Virus record (IMG/VR): IMGVR_UViG_2654587686_000004
Location: 1-11,387 of that record
Source: a virus
Lineage: Duplodnaviria > Heunggongvirae > Uroviricota > Caudoviricetes
Length of the DNA: 11,387 bases
Reading direction: 5' to 3' (one strand)
A model generated the notes under the pieces. The model had not been told where the DNA came from and ran no database searches. It saw only the letters and a list, made by a program, of their open reading frames with translations. This document shows positions 3 to 9,238 of this stretch, piece by piece (positions within the stretch are counted from its first letter, which is position 1; each line of letters starts with the position of its first letter). The position numbers and the translations under genes are program-made.

Positions 3-2732
3 ATGGGGCAGTTTGGTGACTCCATCCAGCGAACGCAGGGGGCGATCAAAAATCTCGAGCGTCAGGCGCGATCATTTGAGCGCGCCCGCGACGCTGTCAG
101 TAAAGCGGATGCGGGTATCGTGAAAGCACGACGCCAGCTTAACGCCCTTAATCAGTTACAACGCACGGGTACAGTGCTCAGCGAAAAACAACAAAAGCTG
201 ATGCAGCAGTTAAGCACCCGGCTTGAACGCCTGAATGAATCGCGCACACGGGAAATTCAGAAAATGCGGGAACTTGGCGGAGAGCTAAAACGCCACGGCA
301 TTTCCCTGACAGGTAGCGATAACACCATCCAGCAGGCCATCAGACGCACCGAACAGTACAACAACCAGCTTGAACGCGAACGGCAGGCGCTTGCGCGTGT
401 AACGCGGGCGCGTGAGCGGTATTCGCGCGCGCAGGAAACAGCGGGAAAACTGAAAACAGGTGGTGCGCTGGCAATTGGTGCGGCAGCGGCGGGCGGCTAT
501 GCTGCCGGGCGTTTTTTGCAGCCTGCGATCGGGTTCGGCAAAGAGATGTCCCGCGTTCAGGCACTGACGCGAATCGACCAGAACAGCCCGCAGTTTAAGG
601 CGCTGCGTGAGCAGGCGTTAAAACTTGGCTCTGAAACGCAGTTCACCGCAGGCGATGCCGCCAGTGGACAGGCATTTCTTGCAATGGCTGGCTTCACTCC
701 GCAGGCCATTCAGGCTGCGCTTCCCGGCGTGCTGAGCATGGCAACGGCTGGCGGTATGGATCTCGGCGAGACGGCAGATATTGGCTCAAATATCCTGACG
801 CAGTTCGGCCTTTCTGCTGACCAGATGGACCGGGTCGGTGACACACTCACCGCAGCGTTTACCCGTACCAACACTGACCTTCGCGCACTGGGCGAAACCA
901 TGAAATATGCAGGTCCGGTGGCGGGCAAGCTGGGAATATCGCTGGAGCAGGCCGCAGCGATGGCGGGCGTGCTGGCGAATATGGGTATCAGGGGAAGTGA
1001 TGCCGGGACGGCAATGCGTGCCAGCCTGGCTCGTCTGGCATCACCGCCAAAGGCGGCAGCAGAGGCGCTGAAAGAGCTGGGCGTGTCTGTCTCGGATGCT
1101 GGGGGCAAAATGCGCCCGATGGAGGATGTGCTGGCCGACCTTTATAAAGCCACCCGCAAATACGGGGAAGTTGACCGGGTATCGTTCTTTAAGGACATTG
1201 CCGGAGAAGAGGCTTTCACATCGTTTATGGCGCTCGTTGATGCAGCGGGTGACGGTTCCTTACCCAAACTGAGAAAAGAACTTGAAGGCGCGCGCGGTGA
1301 GGCTGAACGCACAGCAAAGGTTATGGCCAACAACCTTGACGGCGATCTGAAATCACTCGGCAGTGCATGGGAAGGGGTGCGCATCCGCATTGCAGATCTG
1401 ATTGACGGTCCGCTGCGTTCTGTCACGCAGTGGCTCACGCGGGTGGTATCAAGGGTGACGGCGCTGGCGCAGGCCCATCCGGCACTGACGCGCCAGCTAC
1501 TGATAGCAGGCGGTGCGTTGCTGGCAATGACTGCAACGGTTGGCTCGTTGTCGCTGGCTATTGGTGTGCTTGCTGGTCCGCTGGCAAAACTGCGTCTTGG
1601 TTTTTCTCTCCTGACCGGATCAATGAATGCTGTCAGGGTCCTGCCAGCGCTGTGGGGAATGGTGACGGGTTCCGTTTCTTTACTGGGAGGCGCTATCGGG
1701 GCGCTGTTCAGTCCGGTTGGTCTTATCGTGGCTGCGCTTGCCGGAGCTGCCGTTCTTATCTGGAAATACTGGGATCCCATCAGGGCATTTTTTGCCGGGG
1801 TGTTCAGCGGGATTATGGAAAGGCTGACCCCGCTGCGCGAAACCTTTGAACGGTTTGGTCCTGTTTTTGACGCAATCGGAAGCGGGATCAGCCAGGTGTT
1901 TAACTGGTTTAAATCGCTGCTGTCACCGATGGAGTCCAGCAAGGAAACGCTGGATAAATGTACCAGTGCTGGCGAGATATTCGGTAACGTTCTTGGCGGT
2001 GCGTTACAGCTTGTTCTGACACCTGCAAAAATGCTACTGGATACGCTGGCGTGGATACTTGAAAAACTTGGCGTCCTTCCGGATGAAGCGGAAAAGGCGC
2101 GCAAGAAAATCGAAGACGCACAGCGTGCGGCCATTCTTCAGGACAAGGTTGCCTTGCTTCAGGGGGACCTGGCGAAAATCAATCCGCCGAAGCCTGTGGA
2201 AAATGGCAATGGCACCGGAGGTGATAAACCCAAAGACAACAAACCGCTCACAGACAGCAATACCGGGACGCTACGCAGACTCAGCAAAATTGCTGATAAC
2301 ACAGGTAAGCTGGTTGATGAGACGAAAAAACGCATTGGCCCCGGCGATATTGTCTTTAAGAACCTGCCCCGCGCACTGGCTGTTCGTGGGGAGTGGCAGG
2401 AGCGGAAGATTGCGCAGGTCAGTAAGCCTGCCCCCGCAATTAATATCACACCCGTGGTCCCGGCTCCGCTGCCTCCGGCGCTGGTCCCTGTTGTTGCGGC
2501 CAGCTCCCGCCCGGTGGCGGAGGCCATACGATCGCCAGTGGCATCAGTTCCTGCAACTTCCCGTAACCGGGAGCCGGTTGCCTCCGGATTTGGCGGTGAA
2601 ATTCATGTTCATCTGCATAACGTTGTTACACAGAATCCCCGCGAACTGGCGAAACTGGTCGGTGAAATGGTCAGGGCAGAAATGGAACGGCGCGCCCGTG
2701 CCGGGCGTGGCAGTTTTTACGATAAAGATTGA
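3..2732 (+). CDS. Phage tail tape-measure protein (P2 gpT-like), 909 aa
   Basis: Long ORF with a coiled-coil-rich N-terminus, a central core resembling TP901/P2-type tape-measure proteins, a Gly/Ala-rich hydrophobic segment and a Pro-rich C-terminus. ATG at 3-5 overlaps TGA at 1-3, so the start may be genuine and coupled to an upstream gene, but upstream sequence is not visible. Followed directly by a gpU-like gene as in P2. Identity from memory of the family, not searched. Confidence 0.88.
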   Translation: MGQFGDSIQRTQGAIKNLERQARSFERARDAVSKADAGIVKARRQLNALNQLQRTGTVLSEKQQKLMQQLSTRLERLNESRTREIQKMRELGGELKRHGISLTGSDNTIQQAIRRTEQYNNQLERERQALARVTRARERYSRAQETAGKLKTGGALAIGAAAAGGYAAGRFLQPAIGFGKEMSRVQALTRIDQNSPQFKALREQALKLGSETQFTAGDAASGQAFLAMAGFTPQAIQAALPGVLSMATAGGMDLGETADIGSNILTQFGLSADQMDRVGDTLTAAFTRTNTDLRALGETMKYAGPVAGKLGISLEQAAAMAGVLANMGIRGSDAGTAMRASLARLASPPKAAAEALKELGVSVSDAGGKMRPMEDVLADLYKATRKYGEVDRVSFFKDIAGEEAFTSFMALVDAAGDGSLPKLRKELEGARGEAERTAKVMANNLDGDLKSLGSAWEGVRIRIADLIDGPLRSVTQWLTRVVSRVTALAQAHPALTRQLLIAGGALLAMTATVGSLSLAIGVLAGPLAKLRLGFSLLTGSMNAVRVLPALWGMVTGSVSLLGGAIGALFSPVGLIVAALAGAAVLIWKYWDPIRAFFAGVFSGIMERLTPLRETFERFGPVFDAIGSGISQVFNWFKSLLSPMESSKETLDKCTSAGEIFGNVLGGALQLVLTPAKMLLDTLAWILEKLGVLPDEAEKARKKIEDAQRAAILQDKVALLQGDLAKINPPKPVENGNGTGGDKPKDNKPLTDSNTGTLRRLSKIADNTGKLVDETKKRIGPGDIVFKNLPRALAVRGEWQERKIAQVSKPAPAINITPVVPAPLPPALVPVVAASSRPVAEAIRSPVASVPATSRNREPVASGFGGEIHVHLHNVVTQNPRELAKLVGEMVRAEMERRARAGRGSFYDKD

Positions 2733-2744
2733 GGAGTCATGGCC

Positions 2745-3233
2745 ATGATGATGATCTACGGCATGTTTGTTTTTGAGCTGCGCACGCTGCCGCATCAGCA
2801 GTTACAGCAAAACAAAAGCTGGCGGCATGTGAAAAATGAACGCGTTAACCGTTCAGCAAGCTGGCAGTATATCGGTGCAGGAGATGATCGCATCGTTCTT
2901 TCTGGTGTGCTTTATCCTGAAATTACAGGTGGCGAAGTATCGCTGTCGCTGCTGACCACGCAGGCGTATACAGGACGCCCCTGGCCTCTGATTGATGGCG
3001 TCGGGCAGATTTACGGCATGTATGTGCTGACTGAAACGAATACGACCCGTTCCGAGTTTGATCGCTACGGTAAGGCGAAAAAGATAGAATTTTCACTGAC
3101 CCTTGAACGCTGTGATGAGGATTTGCGGGAGCGCCTGCAATCCTCATCGTTCAGTGATATGCTGTCCGGCTTCAAAGATAAGGTGACATCATCTCTTAAC
3201 AGCGCGGCCAGCTCCGTTAAAGGGCTGTTTTGA
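2745..3233 (+). CDS. Phage tail protein, P2 gpU-like
   Basis: ORF 2739..3233; the N-terminus MMMIYGMFVFELRTLPHQ and the internal GVLYPEITGG and WPLIDG motifs resemble P2 gpU. GAGGAG at 2731-2736 is 8 nt upstream of the ATG at 2745, which is the preferred start; the ATG at 2739 is too close to it. Stop TGA at 3231-3233. Confidence 0.85.
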   Translation: MMMIYGMFVFELRTLPHQQLQQNKSWRHVKNERVNRSASWQYIGAGDDRIVLSGVLYPEITGGEVSLSLLTTQAYTGRPWPLIDGVGQIYGMYVLTETNTTRSEFDRYGKAKKIEFSLTLERCDEDLRERLQSSSFSDMLSGFKDKVTSSLNSAASSVKGLF

Positions 3234-3240
3234 TTAACGC

Positions 3241-3270
3241 AAAACCGCTAATGGTCAGATTAGCGGTTTT
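3241..3270. terminator. Bidirectional rho-independent terminator hairpin between convergent gpU and invertase genes
   Basis: Perfect 12-bp inverted repeat AAAACCGCTAAT (3241-3252) / ATTAGCGGTTTT (3259-3270) with a 6-nt loop GGTCAG. T-runs follow the stem on both strands (CATTTTCC on +). The invertase stop codon (3260-3262) lies inside the 3' arm. Confidence 0.7.
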
Positions 3271-3859
3271 CATTTTCCTGAGTCTGCCTGGTTGTTTCTT
3301 CAGCCTGTATATCGCCTACAGGGTGATAACGATAAATCGTCGATATGCCGATGTCGTAAATGATCGCCAGTTGTTTCCTGTCATGACCGTTTTTAATCAG
3401 TCTCGCTATTTGCTCATGTTGTTCTTTTGTCAACTTCGGGCGACGTCCGCCAATGCGTCCTTGTGCGCGTGCTGCTGCCAGCCCGGCCAGTGTACGCTCT
3501 ACAATTAATTCACGTTCCATTTCGGCTAAAGCCCCCATGACGTGAAAAAAGAAACGCCCCATGGGTGTTGATGTGTCAATGCTGTCCGTCAGACTACGGA
3601 AATTAACACCTTTTTCCCGCAATTCCTCAATAAGCGTGATCAGGTGTTTCATACTTCTGCCCAGTCTGTCCAGCTTCCAGACAACCAGCGTATCTCCTTC
3701 TGATAGCGTTCTGAGCAGTTTTTTCAATCCCGGTCTGGCTGATTTCGTTCCGCTGATTTTATCTTCAAAAATCAGTTCACATCCTGCGCAGTTCAGTGCA
3801 TTGCGTTGTAAATCCGTGTTCTGGTCATTTGTTGACACACGAATATAGCCAATTTGCAT
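3260..3859 (-). CDS. Serine DNA invertase, Gin/Hin/Pin/Cin (Din) family
   Basis: Translation from the ATG at 3859-3857 starts MQIGYIRVSTNDQNTDLQRNAL and contains DTLVVWKLDRLGRS, SLTDSIDTSTPMGRFFFHVMGALAEMERELIVERT, GRIGGRRPKLT and a C-terminal helix-turn-helix (GISTIYRY). This is near-identical in motif content to Gin/Hin/Pin as recalled, with the catalytic Ser at residue 9. AAAGAGG lies 9 nt upstream of this ATG. The ORF track extends to 4045 only because there is no upstream in-frame stop. Confidence 0.95.
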   Translation of the reverse strand: MQIGYIRVSTNDQNTDLQRNALNCAGCELIFEDKISGTKSARPGLKKLLRTLSEGDTLVVWKLDRLGRSMKHLITLIEELREKGVNFRSLTDSIDTSTPMGRFFFHVMGALAEMERELIVERTLAGLAAARAQGRIGGRRPKLTKEQHEQIARLIKNGHDRKQLAIIYDIGISTIYRYHPVGDIQAEETTRQTQENENR

Positions 3860-3912: not shown

Positions 3913-3938
3913 AAAACGAAAACGTTGGTTTGGGGGAA
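3913..3938 (-). repeat. Invertase crossover site s1 (hix/gix-like, 26 bp), inverted relative to s2-s6
   Basis: Reverse complement reads TTCCCCCAAACC-AA-CGTTTTCGTTTT: a 12-bp left half identical to the other five sites, central AA dinucleotide, and imperfect right half. Resembles hixL (TTCTTGAAAACCAAGGTTTTTGATAA, from memory). Lies 53 bp upstream of the invertase start. Confidence 0.75.
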
Positions 3939-4388
3939 GGCTCTGCACTGCCCGTTGGCGTGCCCGTTCCGTGGCCTTCAGCAACACCGCCAACGGGGTG
4001 GCTGAAATGTAACGGCGCAGCATTTTCTTCTGAAATGTACCCCAATCTGGCAAAGGCTTACCCAACGTTAAAATTACCTGATTTACGCGGTGAGTTTATC
4101 CGTGGTTGGGATGATGGGCGCGGGGTGGATGCGGGAAGGGGCATCTTAAGCATACAGGGGTGGTTAACAGGAAGTCATTATCATAATATTCGGTCATGGG
4201 ACGCGTGGGATAACACGGTACTGGTGCCAAATGACAAAGGAGGGGATAGTCTGTTGTCGACAGATAACGCCGTCCGGCAAGGTGCAATTAACGGTAGATT
4301 TACCAGTCAATACAGAACGGAATCCTCAGTGGGGAATGAAACCCGCCCACGCAATATTGCCTTCAATTATATTGTGAGAACCGCATAA
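3930..4388 (+). CDS. Silent alternative tail-fibre C-terminal cassette A (collar-like receptor-binding tip); no ATG start
   Basis: Begins inside s1 with GLGEGSALPVGVPVPWPSATPPTGWLKCNGAAFSSEMYP...LPDLRGEFIRGWDDGRG and ends ETRPRNIAFNYIVRTA. An in-frame TAA lies 6 codons upstream and there is no ATG or ribosome-binding site; the tracked start is a TTG. Same architecture as the expressed H C-terminus. Confidence 0.8.
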   Translation: MGEGSALPVGVPVPWPSATPPTGWLKCNGAAFSSEMYPNLAKAYPTLKLPDLRGEFIRGWDDGRGVDAGRGILSIQGWLTGSHYHNIRSWDAWDNTVLVPNDKGGDSLLSTDNAVRQGAINGRFTSQYRTESSVGNETRPRNIAFNYIVRTA

Positions 4389-4999
4389 TGAATAACGCGA
4401 TATTAAATGATGACCTTATTGCCGTACAGGCAGGAAACATCGTCGTTTATAACTATGATGGTGAGACACGGGAATATATTTCCGAATCAACTGAATATCT
4501 TGCTGCGGGTGTCGGTATTCCGGCAAATTCCTGTTTAGATGCCCCGGGCGCACATAAAGCGGGCTATGCTATCCGCCGTTCGGAGAATTTAAATTCATGG
4601 GAGTATACGCCAGATCATCGTGGTGAAACCGTCTATAGCACTGACACGGGAAACACCGAAGAAATCACGACGCTGGGTGACTACCCGAAAAATACAACCA
4701 CTATCGCCCCGTTAACACCATACGATAAATGGGATGGTGAAAAATGGGTGACAGATACTGAGGCACAACATGGTGCCGCAGTAGAAGCGGCAGAAACCAA
4801 GCGCCAGTCACTGGCTGATGCGGCAATGGCTTCCATAAGTCTGATTCAGTTGAAGTTGCAGGCCGGGCGGAAGTTGACGCAGGCAGAAACCACCCGGCTT
4901 AACGCCGTGCTGGATTATATAGACGCACTGAACGCAATGGATATAAACATGGCACCAGATATCAACCGGCCGGAAATACCACTGGCAGCAGCCAGTTGA
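4388..4999 (+). CDS. Tail-fibre assembly chaperone (Tfa; lambda Tfa / Mu U / P2 G family)
   Basis: ATG overlaps the cassette A stop (TAATG). Sequence blocks GIPANS, DHRGETVY, KWDGEKWV, TDTEAQ, ETKRQSL and the C-terminal PDINRPEIP parallel lambda Tfa (LPANS, DHRGKTVY, KWNGTAWV, PDIEWPAVP) as recalled. Confidence 0.88.
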   Translation: MNNAILNDDLIAVQAGNIVVYNYDGETREYISESTEYLAAGVGIPANSCLDAPGAHKAGYAIRRSENLNSWEYTPDHRGETVYSTDTGNTEEITTLGDYPKNTTTIAPLTPYDKWDGEKWVTDTEAQHGAAVEAAETKRQSLADAAMASISLIQLKLQAGRKLTQAETTRLNAVLDYIDALNAMDINMAPDINRPEIPLAAAS

Positions 5000-5005
5000 A
5001 TATAA

Positions 5006-5482
5006 CTAAGCCGCCCTCACGATATAGTTAAATGCAATATTGCGGGGGCGGGTTTCACTACCACCTGTGTTACCAATACTTCCTCGTGAATGAAGCGTTG
5101 GTGATGGAATCAAACTCCCTCCTGTATTTGTGGCATCAAGCCCCCTGCCTTGTGTATATGTTTTTTTGAAAATCGTGGCCAACTCCCATTCATCCTTTGT
5201 GTCATATCCATCGTTAGCTACAACAATATGGCGGTGTTTTTCCAACATCCCGGTTTGAATGCTCAATAAAGCGCGTGCTGCATCAATTCCTCGCCCATCA
5301 TCCCAGCCGCGAATAAATTCGCCCCGTAAATCCGGTAATTTATTGGCGGGGTAGGCTTTTGCCAGTTTGGGGTAATCTTCAGAAGAAAATGCTGCACCGT
5401 TACATTTCAGCCAGCCCGTTGGTGGTGTTGCTAAGGGCCACGGAACGGGCACGCCAACGGGCAGTGCAGAGCCTTCCCCCAA
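5006..5482 (-). CDS. Silent alternative tail-fibre C-terminal cassette B; no ATG start
   Basis: Conserved 70-aa N-terminus (GEGSALPVGVPVPWP...RGWDDGRGIDAAR), unique core and conserved C-terminus SETRPRNIAFNYIVRAA. Starts inside crossover site s2. Its 3' end converges on tfa with only 6 bp between the stops. Confidence 0.8.
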   Translation of the reverse strand: MGEGSALPVGVPVPWPLATPPTGWLKCNGAAFSSEDYPKLAKAYPANKLPDLRGEFIRGWDDGRGIDAARALLSIQTGMLEKHRHIVVANDGYDTKDEWELATIFKKTYTQGRGLDATNTGGSLIPSPTLHSRGSIGNTGGSETRPRNIAFNYIVRAA

Positions 5483-5499
5483 ACCAACGTTTTCATACT
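5474..5499 (+). repeat. Invertase crossover site s2 (26 bp)
   Basis: TTCCCCCAAACC-AA-CGTTTTCATACT. The left half is the first codons (GLGE) of cassette B; the right half contains the stop codon of cassette C. Confidence 0.75.
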
Positions 5500-5999
5500 G
5501 CCCTTACGATATAATTAAAGGCAATGTTACGAGGACGGTTTTCGTTTGCAGTTGGAACAATTCTTGAAGCATCAAGGCCAATCACTTTTGGGTAAACAGA
5601 GCCATCTGTTCTTTCTATCACCATACTTCTGATTAAGGAGAAATAACTATTGTTCGTTGAGGGGTTCAAAGGCACCACTGCCCCCTTAAATGAGTCTACT
5701 GATTCCCATATTGAATAATTTTCGGTGTTTACAGTCTTGAACTCACCATAGATATTACGTATGGCATCGCCCTGAGCGGATAATATTGCTCTCCCCGCAT
5801 CCACACCACGCCCATCATCCCAGCCACGGATAAATTCACCGCGTAAATCCGGTAATTTATTGGTGGGGTAGGCTTTTGCCAGATTGGGGTACATTTCAGA
5901 AGAAAATGCTGCACCGTTACATTTCAGCCACCCCGTTGGCGGCGTGGCTGAGGGCCATGGAACGGGCACACCAACGGGCAGCGCAGAGCCTTCCCCCAA
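5493..5999 (-). CDS. Silent alternative tail-fibre C-terminal cassette C; no ATG start
   Basis: Conserved N-terminal block, unique core, C-terminus ENRPRNIAFNYIVRAV. Starts within s3; stop lies within s2. Confidence 0.8.
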   Translation of the reverse strand: MGEGSALPVGVPVPWPSATPPTGWLKCNGAAFSSEMYPNLAKAYPTNKLPDLRGEFIRGWDDGRGVDAGRAILSAQGDAIRNIYGEFKTVNTENYSIWESVDSFKGAVVPLNPSTNNSYFSLIRSMVIERTDGSVYPKVIGLDASRIVPTANENRPRNIAFNYIVRAV

Positions 6000-6016
6000 A
6001 CCAACGTTTTCATGCT
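5991..6016 (+). repeat. Invertase crossover site s3 (26 bp)
   Basis: TTCCCCCAAACC-AA-CGTTTTCATGCT. Same half-site and core as s2; overlaps the cassette D stop (TGA, 6010-6012) and the cassette C first codons. Confidence 0.75.
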
Positions 6017-6438
6017 GCCCTTACGATGTAATTAAACGCAATATTACGAGGACGAATGGTTACATAATTAACCCCATCACCTCGTGAAGGCCCTGCAAAT
6101 GAAAAACGGGAAAAGCCTGGTTGGTTAGAAACAATTTGGTCATAGTTATTGATTGAATGACCAGACCCAATGTCGAAATTACCTCCGTAATGAGAAAAAC
6201 TTGTACCATCCTGCCCTGAAAGCAGGGTACGTCCCGCATCAATCCCGCGCCCATCATCCCAGCCACGGATAAATTCACCGCGTAAATCCGGTAATTTATT
6301 GGTGGGATAAGCCCTTGCCAGTCTGGGATACATTTCAGAAGAAAATGCTGCACCGTTACATTTCAGCCAGCCCGTTGGTGGTGTTGCTGAGGACCACGGA
6401 ACGGGCACACCAACGGGCAGTGCAGAGCCTTCCCCCAA
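6010..6438 (-). CDS. Silent alternative tail-fibre C-terminal cassette D; no ATG start
   Basis: Conserved N-terminal block (one substitution, PWSSAT), unique core, C-terminus TIRPRNIAFNYIVRAA. Confidence 0.8.
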   Translation of the reverse strand: MGEGSALPVGVPVPWSSATPPTGWLKCNGAAFSSEMYPRLARAYPTNKLPDLRGEFIRGWDDGRGIDAGRTLLSGQDGTSFSHYGGNFDIGSGHSINNYDQIVSNQPGFSRFSFAGPSRGDGVNYVTIRPRNIAFNYIVRAA

Positions 6439-6455
6439 ACCAACGTTTTCATGCG
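6430..6455 (+). repeat. Invertase crossover site s4 (26 bp)
   Basis: TTCCCCCAAACC-AA-CGTTTTCATGCG. Confidence 0.75.
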
Positions 6456-6982
6456 GCTCTTACGATGTAATTGAATGCAACGTTGCGGGGGCGTGTTTCT
6501 GCTGTGCCGACAATACTGGTACTCAGTCCTGTCGCTGTTCGTTTGTTATTTTTATTCCCTTCGATAAGACAGTTGTAATCGTCATTACCAATTAACGAGT
6601 TGGTGGCATCAATACTGTCCGGGGACAAGGCATTAGTTGTGGAACTTAAAGTCAGCATCTCGTCTGAACTTGGAAGATTTTTTAATGGTGTTTCATTACG
6701 TGAAATACCCGCATAAAAAAAGGACTCATGCCTGTGCGCTTCAAAGGAGTCATCCTGAAGACTTAGCAAGGCACGCCCAGCATCCAAGCCACGTCCATCA
6801 TCCCAGCCACGGATAAATTCACCCCGTAGATCCGGTAATTTATTCGCGGGGTAAGCCTGTGCCAGTTTGGGGTAATCTTCAGAAGAAAATGCTGCGCCGT
6901 TACATTTCAGCCAGCCCGTTGGCGGTGTAGCTGAGGGCCACGGAACGGGTACACCAACGGGCAACGCAGAGCCTTCCCCCAA
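6449..6982 (-). CDS. Silent alternative tail-fibre C-terminal cassette E; no ATG start
   Basis: Conserved N-terminal block, the longest unique core (about 90 aa), C-terminus AETRPRNVAFNYIVRAA. Confidence 0.8.
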   Translation of the reverse strand: MGEGSALPVGVPVPWPSATPPTGWLKCNGAAFSSEDYPKLAQAYPANKLPDLRGEFIRGWDDGRGLDAGRALLSLQDDSFEAHRHESFFYAGISRNETPLKNLPSSDEMLTLSSTTNALSPDSIDATNSLIGNDDYNCLIEGNKNNKRTATGLSTSIVGTAETRPRNVAFNYIVRAA

Positions 6983-6999
6983 ACCAACGTTTTCATGCG
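6974..6999 (+). repeat. Invertase crossover site s5 (26 bp)
   Basis: TTCCCCCAAACC-AA-CGTTTTCATGCG; overlaps the stop codon of H (TGA, 6993-6995) and the first codons of cassette E. Confidence 0.75.
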
Positions 7000-8633
7000 G
7001 CTCTTACGATGTAATTGAATGCAACGTTGCGAGGGCGAGTTTCTGTACCTACATTTCCACTAATTTCACCAAACCGTTTTACATTACGAGAGCTAATGGC
7101 TCGTAGTGAGGAAGGCACCTTTAAACCGGGTTCGTCTGTTTTAACTATTCCCCCGTCCCCGTATGTAGCCAGTATTCCAGGGTTTACTCCTTCCCGTGCA
7201 CTTCCCGCGGCAAGTCCGCCCCCGGTCCATAATTCCATATAGTGTGCATGATCCAAAATTGTGTGTGGCTGCCAATTAAGCAAAGCGCGACCAGCATCCA
7301 CCCCGCGCCCATCATCCCAGCCGCGAATAAATTCTCCCCGTAAATCCGGTAATTTATTGGCGGGGTAGGCTTTTGCCAGTTTGGGGTACATTTCAGAAGA
7401 AAATGCTGCGCCGTTACATTTCAACCACCCCGCTGGCAGCGTGGCTGAGGGCCATGGAACGGCCACACCAACAGGCAGCGCAGAGCCTTCCCCCAAACCA
7501 AGGTAATCAAGAACTCCCTGAGTGCTGGTTTTGCCAAGAATGGCACGTCCAACACTTGTCAACGCGGTTAACGCGGCACGATCTGCCCCTGTAAAATATG
7601 GGAGTTTATCTGCTGATGTGGCAAGCTCCGCCAGCGCCGTCAGGGTGGCATCCTTCGGTTGCTTACCCGCAAGCGCGTTAGTCATGGTGGTCGCAAAATT
7701 CGGGTCATTGCCCAGCGCCGCAGCCAGTTCGTCCAGCGTGTTCAGTGCATCAGGTGACGAATCTACAAGTGCGGCAATCGCGGCCATAACGAAAGCCGTG
7801 CTTGCGATCTGGGTACTATTAGTCCCCTGTGCCGCCGTTGGTGTTGTTGGCGTTCCGGTCAGTGCCGGGCTGTTTAATGGTGCTTTCTTGTTCGTTTCAT
7901 CCATTACCGCCTTAACAGCTTTTGGTGTCGCTGCCAGCGTTTCAGACGTGCTGTTCGTGGCGCTACTGAGCTGAACAATCCCTTTTTGTGTAGTGGTGGC
8001 GTTCTGGGCGGTATATTTCCCGTTAGCCAGGTCATATGCAGCCTTAACCGCTTTCGGTGTTGCGGCCAGTGTTTCTGATTCACTGTTAATTGCACTGCTT
8101 AACTGAGTAAAACCTTTTACGGTCAGCGAGGCGTCCGGGTGACGTCGTGACTGTTCGTGCTCTGAGATTTTATCATCCACATATTTGCGGGTTGCCAGAA
8201 CCACAGACGGGTCGATTTTCAGCGTGATGGCTTCGGTGTTCGTGACAACCAGAATCATGCGGATAGTCTGGGTGCGTCCACTGCCTTCCTGCAACTGCGG
8301 TTTGTACGTTTCCGGGCAGTTTGCCACCGCAATAAGTACGCCTTCATCATCATAAAGACCAATCTCACGGATCCAGAATCCTCCCTCGTTTTCAGGGATG
8401 ATTTGTTCCGCAATAATCTGGCTCTGATTGTTAGGGTCAACACTCAGAAGATTCAGCGGTGCAATGCGTTTCTGGTTAATCAGTTTTGTTTGTGCAGGGT
8501 CTGGTGTTGGTAACACACCATTTGCATCACCAACGGCCATTTGCGTCAGATTCAGCTTACTGCCGAGCATCGTCGCGTTAGCCAGTCGTGCCGCGCCCTG
8601 ATTAGTCAGAATGGCGTAGTATTTCACTGTCAT
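6993..8633 (-). CDS. Tail-fibre protein (P2 gpH-like constant N-terminus fused to expressed C-terminal cassette F)
   Basis: 546-aa ORF whose ATG overlaps the gpI stop (ATGA). The N-terminal ~160 aa (MAVGDANG, GGFWIREIGLYDDEGVLIAVAN, KPQLQEGSGRTQT) resemble P2 gpH. Residues ~381-546, downstream of crossover site s6, have the same collar-like cassette architecture as the five silent cassettes and end ETRPRNVAFNYIVRAA. Confidence 0.93.
   Translation of the reverse strand: MTVKYYAILTNQGAARLANATMLGSKLNLTQMAVGDANGVLPTPDPAQTKLINQKRIAPLNLLSVDPNNQSQIIAEQIIPENEGGFWIREIGLYDDEGVLIAVANCPETYKPQLQEGSGRTQTIRMILVVTNTEAITLKIDPSVVLATRKYVDDKISEHEQSRRHPDASLTVKGFTQLSSAINSESETLAATPKAVKAAYDLANGKYTAQNATTTQKGIVQLSSATNSTSETLAATPKAVKAVMDETNKKAPLNSPALTGTPTTPTAAQGTNSTQIASTAFVMAAIAALVDSSPDALNTLDELAAALGNDPNFATTMTNALAGKQPKDATLTALAELATSADKLPYFTGADRAALTALTSVGRAILGKTSTQGVLDYLGLGEGSALPVGVAVPWPSATLPAGWLKCNGAAFSSEMYPKLAKAYPANKLPDLRGEFIRGWDDGRGVDAGRALLNWQPHTILDHAHYMELWTGGGLAAGSAREGVNPGILATYGDGGIVKTDEPGLKVPSSLRAISSRNVKRFGEISGNVGTETRPRNVAFNYIVRAA
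7488..7513 (+). repeat. Invertase crossover site s6 at the H constant/variable junction
   Basis: TTCCCCCAAACC-AA-GGTAATCAAGAA. The left half is identical to s1-s5 and the core is AA; the right half is the diverged H constant-region sequence (codons for VLDY). Any cassette joined here gives the same in-frame YLGLGEGS junction. Confidence 0.75.
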
Positions 8634-9238
8634 GCGTTTACTCTCAGATTATCAATTAAATGAATGGCCGGGGCAGGGAAATAATCCCCTTCGACAATAA
8701 TGGACTCCGGGGTGTAGGGATAAACCGTCAGGGCATCGCCGTGATAGCATCCCGTACCAACGAAAATCTTTCCGTTCACACTCAGGCTGATCGCCAGCCC
8801 CGTCAGATGGCGACTTACTGGTTTTGCATCCGCAATAAGGCGCTCAAGTTCCTGATACATTTCATCGGTGATGCCCTGATCAAGTACTCCGACAACAATG
8901 CGAAATGTTCCTGGCTCCTCGTTGAGTTGCCACCACTCCTTTACTTCAATCAGGTAGCCGAGAGGCTCCACGGCTCTTCGCAGTGCGCTGATGGTCCCTT
9001 TGTGTCGGTGTATCAGCCATGCATCACGAATTACCTGTCGCTTTGTCTCTTCCGGCCAGTTGCGATCCCAGCGGTCAACGGAAAACGCCCAGGCGAGATA
9101 AGGCAGCAGATGCACCGGGCAGGTATCCGGCGACCACAGCGTATTGAGGTCTACCGGAATGTCTGTAATGCGTGTTCCGACGGCTTCGGCACAACGCATG
9201 AAACTGCTGGCTGATGGTGGTAACAACGAATTACTCAT
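8630..9238 (-). CDS. Baseplate/tail protein, P2 gpI-like
   Basis: From the ATG at 9238-9236 the protein reads MSNSLLPP...NTLWSPDTCPVHLLPYLAWAFSVDRWD...RLIADAKPVSRHL, resembling P2 gpI. This ATG overlaps the last codon and stop of gpJ (ATGAGTAA); the tracked ORF start at 9271 would overlap gpJ by 41 nt and is less likely. The stop overlaps the H start. Confidence 0.85.
   Translation of the reverse strand: MSNSLLPPSASSFMRCAEAVGTRITDIPVDLNTLWSPDTCPVHLLPYLAWAFSVDRWDRNWPEETKRQVIRDAWLIHRHKGTISALRRAVEPLGYLIEVKEWWQLNEEPGTFRIVVGVLDQGITDEMYQELERLIADAKPVSRHLTGLAISLSVNGKIFVGTGCYHGDALTVYPYTPESIIVEGDYFPAPAIHLIDNLRVNA

Follow-up and report, generated by a model that had tools for sequence, protein, structure and literature searches.

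Gene H and its array of silent tips

The window (the whole 11,387-nt stretch of DNA analyzed in this study) carries six tail-fibre tips, one fused to gene H and five present as start-less silent cassettes (A-E). They lie in a P2-like chromosomal prophage, in which the genes gpV-W-J-I-H converge on the tape measure gene and gpU. The features of the array are as follows.

3241-3270, no strand: putative bidirectional hairpin terminator, with gpU (+) on one side and the invertase gene (-) on the other; 12-pair stem, T runs on both strands
3260-3859, -: gene for a serine DNA invertase of the Gin/Hin/Cin/Min family (199 aa), pointing away from the invertible region
3913-3938, +: crossover site A, the only inverted site; AAAACGAAAACG TT GGTTTGGGGGAA
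3927-4388, +: cassette A, silent tip (153 aa plus stop) in the orientation opposite to H; Collar domain, E 4.7e-15
4388-4999, +: tfa, tail-fibre assembly (chaperone) gene (203 aa); Pfam Caudo_TAP, E 3.3e-31
5006-5485, -: cassette B, silent tip (159 aa plus stop)
5474-5499, -: crossover site B, AGTATGAAAACG TT GGTTTGGGGGAA; holds the TGA of cassette C (5493-5495)
5493-6002, -: cassette C, silent tip (169 aa plus stop)
5991-6016, -: crossover site C; holds the TGA of cassette D (6010-6012)
6010-6441, -: cassette D, silent tip (143 aa plus stop)
6430-6455, -: crossover site D; holds the TGA of cassette E (6449-6451)
6449-6985, -: cassette E, silent tip (178 aa plus stop)
6974-6999, -: crossover site E; holds the TGA of H (6993-6995)
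6993-7499, -: Hc, the currently expressed tip (168 aa plus stop), joined in frame to the constant part of H
7488-7513, -: crossover site H, inside gene H; TTCTTGATTACC TT GGTTTGGGGGAA
7500-8633, -: constant 5' part of H (residues 1-378), comprising the baseplate-binding N-terminal domain and fibre repeats

Gene H as a whole occupies 6993-8633 (-). Its constant part matched Pfam Phage_tail_fib (E 1.7e-62) and Phage_fiber_2 repeats, and its Collar domain lies at residues 389-436.

The invertase contains Pfam Resolvase (E 1.7e-51) and HTH_7 domains and the catalytic RVST motif; over residues 1-183 it matched the Mu Gin structures 4M6F/3UJ3 (E 1e-90, about 80% identical). Its ATG lies at 3859-3857, with AAAGAGGA just upstream. 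Residues 1-179 are 97% identical to the invertases on IMG/VR viral contigs L036-L043 (up to ~97 kb), which are taken to be P1-like. The 5' part of the gene contains a single Fis-like 15-mer (3752-3766), and synonymous-site variation shows a modest dip at nt 50-110; Fis-like patterns were not enriched in the window (9 vs 5.9 +/- 2.7 expected). The reaction may depend on Fis and an enhancer, and the terminator probably shields the array from the converging tail operon.

Crossover sites and natural isomers

A search for the pattern GAWWACSTTGGTTTRGGRGAA, with up to 2 mismatches allowed, found exactly six places in the window, whereas 0 were expected from 200 shuffles. Five of these 26-bp sites are direct and one is inverted, and all six agree with the published invertase consensus and with the Phi2 sites of EC958, TCCTCAATTACCTT GGTTTAGGAGAA and GAGAGATAAACGTT GGTTTGGGGGAA (PMC4134206). 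The first-pass annotation had described cassettes B-E as lying head-to-tail on the - strand directly after H, each starting at GLGEGS inside a crossover site, with the stop of the preceding cassette inside the next site. This was borne out over 5006-6985: the right half-site, GGTTTGGGGGAA, forms the codons G-L-G-E of GLGEGS, and the TGA occupies positions 5-7 of one half-site (junction GCA TGA AAACG / TT / GGTTTG...). The stop-bearing half-site is the "right" one in + strand coordinates and the "left" one in gene sense. At site H the TGA is out of frame, and the site is translated as ..L D Y L G L G E... In 77 related loci, 63 of 65 head-to-tail junctions have the stop beginning exactly 10 nt ahead of the first G of the next cassette, and 163 of 174 sites have TT as their core.

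The constant 5' part of H ends at a 26-bp crossover site, and the six alternative 3' cassettes open with the same right half-site. Each single cassette closes with the left half-site, doubling as ..Ala-stop, and tandem cassettes therefore rebuild a full site at each junction. This anatomy is consistent with the following mechanism. Invertases of the Hin/Gin family recombine only sites in inverted orientation. The adjacent serine invertase would do the same, so the five direct sites would be safe from deletion. The single inverted site, at cassette A, would open access to the array; successive inversions would permute the cassettes, and any one of them could be fused in frame to H. A breadth-first search over all inversion products reached 240 configurations, and any cassette reaches H in 2 inversions or fewer, starting from the arrangement in the window. 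The window holds one arrangement only, and this particular prophage copy is presumably active in inversion.

Among near-identical prophages the same cassettes are arranged differently, and the breakpoints lie no more than about 4 nt from the TT core. For example, the flanks of loci L045 and L049 are 99.9% identical, while the 439-nt D cassette has been moved and flipped, as expected from two inversions. Between L002 (E2348/69) and L012 the whole 2-kb segment is inverted, and the alignment blocks stop within about 4 nt of the cores. The survey turned up 31 loci with 2-8 cassettes each, arranged in many ways and together representing a pool of 40 types; 172 of the 178 cassettes have intact reading frames. 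Matching cassette types were also found in arrays on 255 plasmids (about 92-102 kb among the matches listed). Plasmid L008 has 7 cassettes, and viral contigs L039 and L041, also taken to be P1-like, have 8 each. A study of E2348/69 reported three inverted repeats, with inversions of about 2,200 and 1,800 bp, and confirmed four variants by PCR (PMC4272514); these sizes fit the L002 sites at 3715, 5301 and 5740.

Because the natural isomers break at the sites and the E2348/69 relative shuffles, the array is best read as a multiple-inversion system of the Min type, as in p15B; the first-pass annotation had mentioned neither this known type nor the single tfa. Very probably, a Min/Gin-type system in a P2-like (Peduoviridae) E. 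coli prophage uses this region to store its silent cassettes. The earlier view that the silent cassettes sit at crossover sites is supported by the junction anatomy, the adjacent Gin-like invertase and the isomers broken near the TT core.

Tip architecture, the single tfa and other readings

The six cassettes share an N-terminal block of 77 aa (90% protein and 85% DNA identity) and a C-terminal block of 16 aa (87% protein identity), separated by a core with 19% protein identity. In the collar block the six copies have 276 synonymous vs 119 non-synonymous differences, which points to purifying selection on the protein instead of recent DNA homogenization. The three-block structure is as first described, except that the core measures 50-85 aa, not 55-90 aa. 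A profile of the six cassettes matched the T4 gp37 tip (2XGF, E 3.6e-20), a phage short tail fibre (9CUY, E 6.4e-22) and T4 gp12 (1OCY), and the matches fall in two pieces, one on the N-terminal block and one on the final ~16 residues. The C-terminal ends read ...NIAFNYIVRL in T4 gp37 and ...NIAFNYIVRAA in the cassettes. If the 242-residue 2XGF chain is gp37 785-1026, the two pieces coincide with the two segments (811-881 and 1010-1026) that make up D10, the collar domain of gp37. D11, the needle/tip domain, is described as an insertion into D10 (PMC6957217). At the level of sequence, this supports the view that the variable core corresponds to the needle/tip inserted in the gp37/gp12 collar domain. 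The proposal of a fixed scaffold with a swappable receptor-binding insert gains from this homology: the Collar domain was detected in cassette A and in H, and the conserved blocks match the two halves of the split T4 collar domain. Since an AlphaFold monomer model of a cassette reached a pLDDT of 41.5, we infer from the solved homologues that the core forms a surface-exposed tip. The two conserved blocks together would make a collar domain docking onto the shaft, and the unrelated 50-85-aa core between them would be the distal, receptor-binding part; a cassette swap would therefore change host range. Each core may have its own receptor specificity.

The array contains only one tfa gene, whose start overlaps the stop of cassette A (TAATG) and which lies tail-to-tail with cassette B across a 6-nt gap. 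This generic tfa serves six tips, and the same Tfa type sits behind about 20 different cassette types elsewhere. It is antisense to H in the window arrangement and in half of the isomers, which fits poorly with a simple picture in which every isomer is productive. Inversions might then switch the chaperone together with the tip: tfa-antisense isomers would make Tfa-less fibres or no functional fibres, and the array would act as tip selector and ON/OFF (or capped/uncapped) switch in one, not as a pure six-way selector. The coupling of the sole tfa to cassette A and its position tail-to-tail with B favour such a switch, as does its co-orientation with H in only 120 of the 240 isomers and never when B is expressed. 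Furthermore, no above-chance promoter lies upstream of tfa, the hairpin terminator blocks the converging gpU operon, and Mu Tfa is described as staying on the virion fibre tip and aiding host-receptor recognition in a passage of PMC9608196 citing a Mu Tfa study. However, types B, C and Hc each directly precede the same Tfa type in simpler two-allele prophages and therefore look like ordinary Tfa clients. Tfa-less isomers might also be mere dead ends, and leaky read-through or a weak promoter would suffice for a chaperone. We consider a chaperone switch unlikely and prefer a selector of tips.

The collar repeats, 83-89% identical over 231 nt, could themselves serve as substrates for RecA-dependent recombination, which would make the array a fossil of tandem duplications rearranged between ~230-bp repeats. 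Cassette counts in relatives range from 2 to 8, which does suggest that unequal crossing-over or deletion happens now and then. However, the breakpoints of the isomer pairs lie at the 26-bp sites, and therefore each collar moves with its own core; the invertase is intact and Gin-like, and so are the open frames of nearly all surveyed cassettes (the 172 of 178 given above). [quoted passage not shown] A RecA origin of the rearrangements is very improbable beside site-specific inversion.

The silent cassettes had been described as lacking an ATG and a ribosome-binding site, with an in-frame stop a few codons upstream, and this proved correct. Five codons before the Gly codon opening GLGEGS, the fusion frame contains a TAA (ATC GTA AGA -> TCG TAA GAG), and the silent-cassette starts have no in-frame ATG or GTG. 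The sole mechanical start is a TTG (the Leu of GLGEGS) inside the crossover site, with no Shine-Dalgarno motif found at a usable distance; promoter-like matches in the region (5 vs 6.6 +/- 2.3 expected from shuffles) were not in excess. Every cassette is an intact ORF with that possible TTG start, RefSeq/PGAP annotates cassettes as CDSs ("phage tail protein", 140-180 aa), and 449 sequences in the Hc-type cluster P0001 bear the name "tail fiber protein"; but translation as independent small genes for separate tail components is scarcely credible, as the TTG codes for Leu of ..YLGLGEGS.. in full-length H, start and promoter signals are as just described, the products would be without the baseplate-binding domain and shaft, the same cassette types occur fused to H in other genomes, and the EC958 authors call such annotations of alternate 3' fragments artefacts (PMC4134206).

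Comparison with known systems

Invertible multi-cassette tail-fibre tips are already known as a kind of system; what is new is this array as a further member. For plasmid p15B of E. coli 15T-, Sandmeier, Iida and Arber reportedly described six crossover sites and 240 isomers in 1992; these figures equal those computed here. The likeness, which rests on descriptions of p15B (sequence X62121), also includes a serine invertase and multiple inversions. Min of p15B belongs to the Gin/Cin/Hin family, and its multiple inversions yield variable tail-fibre types (PMC6109161). However, the present array lies in a P2-like chromosomal prophage and not on a plasmid, and its constant part is a 378-aa P2-H-type fibre instead of a long P1-S-type fibre.

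Also close is the "shufflon" of E2348/69 (Goldberg et al. 2014, PMC4272514), a P2-like EPEC prophage of the same lineage (97.5% DNA identity over the backbone) with the same invertase, A-tfa-B element and site type, in which inversion was detected by read mapping and PCR. It has three sites, three tips and 4 isomers, whereas the present array has six, six and 240.

The Mu G segment (Gin), P1 C segment (Cin) and e14 P segment (Pin) likewise have 26-bp sites inside a fibre gene with a constant 5' part and alternative 3' parts, and the present invertase is close to Gin. They have two sites and two mirror-image alleles, each with its own tfa, whereas the present array has several start-less cassettes in tandem and one common tfa. 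The surveyed relative L028 has the Mu-type layout, with a B-type cassette and tfa opposite a non-collar cassette with its own, different tfa.

T4 gp37 and gp12 share the split collar domain with an inserted distal domain, the near-identical C-terminal motif NIAFNYIV and, in 4 of 6 cassettes, an HxH motif right behind the collar. The gp37 insert is longer (128 aa vs 50-85 aa) and has seven HxH motifs, against at most one per cassette insert, and T4 tips are not switched by inversion. The R64 shufflon (Rci/sfx, pilV) and the Bifidobacterium prophage Rin shufflon also combine a constant 5' gene with alternative 3' segments and short sites between them, and favour inversion over deletion; the variable genes of Rin are likewise in tandem orientation. 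Both use tyrosine recombinases and other sites (11-bp repeats in Rin), and are thus analogous, not homologous, to the present array.

Layout of the array and anatomy of the junctions

The array lies in the tail module of a P2-like Escherichia coli prophage. The tail-fibre gene H now ends in the tip Hc, and five further tip cassettes, A to E, are silent.

Features of the window (coordinates, strand, description)
3-2732, +, tape-measure gene of the P2-like tail module
2739-3233, +, gpU of the P2-like tail module
3241-3270, hairpin (12-pair stem, T runs on each strand) at the meeting point of gpU and the invertase gene, which converge
3260-3859, -, serine invertase gene
3927-4388, +, tip cassette A, inverted
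4388-4999, +, tfa, the tail-fibre assembly (chaperone) gene, overlapping the stop of cassette A
5006-6985, -, tip cassettes B, C, D and E
6993-8633, -, H, preceded in its operon by gpV, gpW, gpJ and gpI (all -)

H encodes a Phage_tail_fib N-terminal domain, fibre repeats and a Collar domain at residues 389-436. The hairpin at 3241-3270 is probably a bidirectional terminator that shields the invertible region from the operon of the tape measure and gpU. Prophages in many E. coli strains, EPEC E2348/69 among them, share 97-99% identity with the backbone, and similar sequence occurs in 2,130 complete E. coli genomes out of 5,426.

A pattern built from the junctions found exactly six crossover sites in the window, five on the - strand and one on the + strand, with 0 expected by chance. 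In each site (26 bp in total), a 2-bp TT core separates two 12-bp halves that are imperfect inverted repeats of each other, in the form xxxxTGAAAACG or TTCTTGATTACC, then TT, then GGTTTGGGGGAA. Read in the sense of H, the right half GGTTTGGGGGAA is invariant across sites and encodes the G-L-G-E of the motif GLGEGS, so that all cassettes begin within a site. The 12-nt left half at the four tandem junctions is xGCA TGA AAACG, in which the TGA at half-site positions 5-7 is the stop of the preceding cassette. The site inside H has the left half TTCTTGATTACC, in which the TGA is present out of frame and which is translated as L-D-Y-L. The sites agree with the 26-bp Gin/Cin/Pin/Min consensus, and they closely match the crossover sites of prophage Phi2 of E. 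coli EC958, which were obtained by PacBio mapping and are tabulated in PMC4134206.

The first-pass annotation had described start-less cassettes packed head-to-tail, each beginning at GLGEGS within a site with no ribosome-binding site, preceded by an in-frame stop and closed by a stop inside the next site. This description held at all four tandem junctions. The sole formal start of the cassettes is a TTG (the Leu of GLGEGS), without a Shine-Dalgarno motif at a usable distance, and a TAA lies in the fusion frame five codons upstream of the opening Gly. Promoter-like matches were not commoner than in shuffled sequence, and none stood above chance for the silent cassettes or tfa. The packing is also precise elsewhere: among 77 related loci, 63 of the 65 head-to-tail junctions have the first base of the stop, which may be TGA, TAA or TAG, exactly 10 nt ahead of the next cassette.

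An ATG overlaps the junction TGA (as ATGA) at 6994-6996, 6450-6452, 6011-6013 and 5494-5496, and opens a third-frame ORF of ~30 codons across the collar region. The preceding cassette, the next cassette and this ATG occupy three different frames, an arrangement that provides for neither read-through nor coupling. Translational coupling through the ATGA was rejected because relatives with TAA or TAG as the junction stop lack the ATG; the short ORFs are probably meaningless.

The packing may be understood as an economy. A tandem cassette would require a complete site before it, and the cheapest solution would be for the cassette before it to supply the outer half-site at its 3' end. Since the family half-site, in either form, has TGA at positions 5-7, using this triplet as the cassette stop costs nothing; a stop placed there would also ensure that silent cassettes are unreachable by read-through. 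Hin/Gin-type invertases are known to recombine inverted sites, without efficient deletion between direct sites (summarized in PMC11850598), and a head-to-tail stack should thus be stable. The cassette number varies from 2 to 8 among strains, indicating that occasional gain or loss happens. A 26-bp recombination site is here overprinted on coding sequence, with one half forming the start of a tip (G-L-G-E) and the other the stop of the previous tip, and this packing keeps six host-range variants in 3.6 kb.

Invertase and inversion isomers

The invertase carries the Pfam domains Resolvase (N-terminal and catalytic, with the Ser nucleophile) and HTH_7 (a C-terminal helix-turn-helix). Mu Gin (4M6F/3UJ3) matches it with E 1e-90 and ~80% identity, and the RVST motif is conserved. 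Over residues 1-179 it is 97% identical to invertases encoded by viral contigs in IMG/VR that reach ~97 kb and are taken to be P1-like; an identity of 98.5% to Min is given for the invertase of a P1-like plasmid (PMC6906374). A Fis-like 15-mer occurs once in the 5' part of the invertase gene, at 3752-3766 (nt 94-108 of the gene); the Fis-site pattern is not enriched in the window, where its matches are not above chance. Among 60 diverged homologues, synonymous-site entropy is 0.5 in the first ~50 nt of the gene, 0.66-0.71 at nt ~50-110 and 0.8-0.9 over most of the rest. This entropy scan is weakly suggestive, and the low synonymous variation together with the 15-mer (3752-3859) may mark an embedded recombinational enhancer.

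The five direct sites and the one inverted site delimit four single cassettes (Hc, E, D and C) and a double-headed unit, A-tfa-B, whose cassettes converge. Enumeration of all inversion products between inverted sites gave 240 reachable arrangements. Any cassette can be fused to H, and from the present state this takes one inversion for A and two for each of B to E.

For the survey, 160 loci were fetched through their invertase; H, tips, tfa and invertase were mapped, and the tip cores were clustered. In 31 loci, 2-8 collar-type cassettes were found, drawn from 40 core types, and 172 of the 178 surveyed cassettes have intact ORFs. Identical cassette sets occur in different signed orders among these loci, and two pairs are decisive. 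L045 and L049 have flanks that are 99.9% identical, and between them the 439-nt D cassette is relocated and flipped, exactly as two inversions predict. Between L002 (the E2348/69 locus) and L012, the 2-kb segment between the outer sites is inverted. In both pairs the alignment blocks stop within ~4 nt of the TT cores. This means that the collar travels with its own core, which favours site-specific exchange and counts against homologous recombination.

Experiments on a close relative point the same way. The P2-like prophage of E2348/69 has three inverted repeats and undergoes inversions of ~2,200 and ~1,800 bp, and its cultures held all four predicted variants together (Goldberg et al., PMC4272514). 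This geometry fits L002, which shares 97.5% backbone identity with the window; the three fetched assemblies of E2348/69 derivatives have one shared arrangement. Inversion between inverted sites is thus supported by the isomer pairs and by experiments on relatives, and by comparison would also apply to the present copy. In a separate viral record (L010, IMGVR_UViG_2541047915_000010), the region ~5400-9000 maps as H D B <tfa A> <A tfa> <B invertase, with A-tfa-B duplicated as a palindrome. Most likely a mixture of isomers was mis-assembled here, an error of the kind that the EC958 authors warned of.

Tip architecture and the single chaperone gene

The cassettes had been read from the sequence as a fixed scaffold, conserved at both ends, around a swappable insert, and the alignment bears this out: identity among the six is 90% over the N-terminal 77 aa, 19% in the core (50-85 aa) and 87% over the last 16 aa. 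The tail collar suspected in the first-pass annotation is also present, as the Collar domain (PF07484) matches all six cassettes with E 1e-12 to 5e-15. Differences between copies of the collar block are synonymous in 276 cases and non-synonymous in 119, indicating that the block is kept for its protein and not by recent gene conversion.

A profile of the six cassettes matches solved fibres, namely 9CUY (a phage short tail fibre, E 6e-22), 2XGF (the T4 gp37 tip, E 4e-20) and 1OCY (T4 gp12). Both gp37 and gp12 are matched in two pieces, an N-terminal block and the extreme C-terminus; for 2XGF, query 6-94 aligns with chain 27-109 and query 144-163 with chain 210-241. The C-terminal ends read ...ENTVKNIAFNYIVRL in gp37 and ...ETRPRNIAFNYIVRAA in the cassettes. 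The 242-residue 2XGF chain presumably corresponds to gp37 785-1026 (chain 1 being gp37 785). With this offset, the matched pieces correspond to gp37 811-893 and roughly 1011-1025. Residues 811-881 and 1010-1026 make up the gp37 collar domain D10, and the needle/tip domain D11 is inserted into it (PMC6957217; see also PMC12609058). Since the two pieces fall on D10, with D11 inserted between them, the scaffold-plus-insert reading appears right at the level of sequence: the conserved blocks would form one collar domain that docks on the shaft, and the unrelated core would be the distal, exposed part. An AlphaFold2 monomer model of Hc from a 12-sequence alignment was unusable (mean pLDDT 41.5, pTM 0.23), and the statement on the exposed tip thus rests on homology; the poor model is likely due to an obligate intertwined trimer and the shallow alignment. 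An HxH motif opens the core in Hc (HAH, about 7242-7250), E and B (both HRH) and A (HYH), is absent from C and D, and lines up with the first of the metal-binding HxH motifs in the gp37 needle.

The array holds a single tfa, an ORF immediately downstream of tip A whose product matches Caudo_TAP (PF02413) over residues 78-198 with E 3.3e-31. The gene is translationally coupled to A, the stop of A and the ATG of tfa sharing a base (TAATG). It lies tail-to-tail with cassette B, their stops 6 nt apart and with no terminator between them (4386-5008); the converging gpU operon is probably closed by the 12-pair-stem hairpin. In the window, tfa is antisense to the expressed fibre gene; only 120 of the 240 isomers have it in the same orientation as H, and none of those expresses B. 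No promoter above chance was found upstream of tfa; the best sigma-70-like match (CTGGCA-16-TAAAAT, 9/12, at 4047-4074 on the + strand, in the collar region of A) is within chance. At this position, A has T-L-K-L-P and the other five cassettes have A/T-N-K-L-P.

The same Tfa type (at least 80% identity, both domains) directly follows ~20 core types, and cassettes of types B, C and Hc directly precede it in other prophages. The tips other than A thus resemble usual clients of Tfa. Tfa looks generic from this distribution, and a generic Tfa could serve six tips from one copy. A PDB sequence search with Tfa gave nothing significant. In one locus (L028), the whole invertible segment has a mirror layout: B and tfa stand on one side, and a non-collar cassette stands on the other with a different tfa of its own. 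Both tfa orientations are common among the surveyed prophages, as is expected if lysogens are not selected for fibre function.

Because the single tfa flips with A and B, inversions could jointly set the choice of tip and the co-transcription of the chaperone, and Tfa may cap the tip; we consider this joint control improbable. Capping of the fibre tip by Tfa is reported for Mu. If fibres lacking Tfa work but bind differently, up to ~11 fibre phenotypes could arise from six cassettes; if such fibres are non-functional, about half of the lysogens would be pre-set to release fibre-defective particles. Either outcome, if true, would constitute a control layer not described for Gin/Min-type systems.

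Distribution and relation to known systems

Matching arrays of the same cassette types were found on 255 plasmids, with sizes of ~92-102 kb among the matches listed (H91-H102). A 98.5-kb E. coli plasmid (L008) and two viral contigs (L039 and L041) carry arrays of 7-8 cassettes, with core types B, D, Hc, A and others. Tips have evidently been exchanged between P2-like prophages and P1-like phage-plasmids, as these shared core types suggest. In another viral contig, L040, which is taken to be P1-like, a reverse-oriented stretch at ~2400-3450 resembles the constant part of H and lies between two cassettes of an array; it may be a longer cassette with fibre repeats.

In RefSeq/PGAP, the silent cassettes of the window and of loci L001-L008 are entered as CDSs of their own, named 'phage tail protein' or 'tail fiber protein' and starting at the in-site TTG, and one 'tail fiber protein' cluster (P0001) has 449 member sequences. 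Free-standing cassette CDSs are an annotation artefact. The present analysis corrects this widespread artefact, in that silent 3' cassettes account for hundreds of 'phage tail protein' CDSs in RefSeq. It also yields a catalogue of ~40 interchangeable tip types that P2-like prophages and P1-size plasmids have in common, for use in host-range prediction or fibre engineering.

Apart from the enhancer, for which the signs are weakly suggestive, the system shows those hallmarks of the Gin/Hin/Cin/Min family that were tested. It resembles Min of p15B in its multi-site architecture: both have more than two sites, overlapping invertible segments and many isomers, and both combine one constant 5' fibre ORF with alternative 3' segments that have no expression signals of their own. 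Min of p15B is said to have six sites and 240 isomers, the same arithmetic as in the window. PMC6109161 describes Min as a serine-invertase system in which multiple inversions yield variable tail-fibre types. In the R64 shufflon (Rci/sfx), a tyrosine recombinase acts on sfx sites in pilV, whereas here a serine invertase acts on a tail-fibre gene; the system is shufflon-like in its working without belonging to that class, since its recombinase is not Rci. In T4 gp37 and gp12, an N-terminal segment and the very end of the chain together make up the collar, and the distal domain is inserted between the two; the cassettes are alike in sequence. In sum, the first-pass description was accurate and well interpreted, and conceptually nothing is added beyond the precedents of Min/p15B and E2348/69. 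The array draws attention to the arrangement of one chaperone for many tips, and it is in this single tfa alone that something new may lie.
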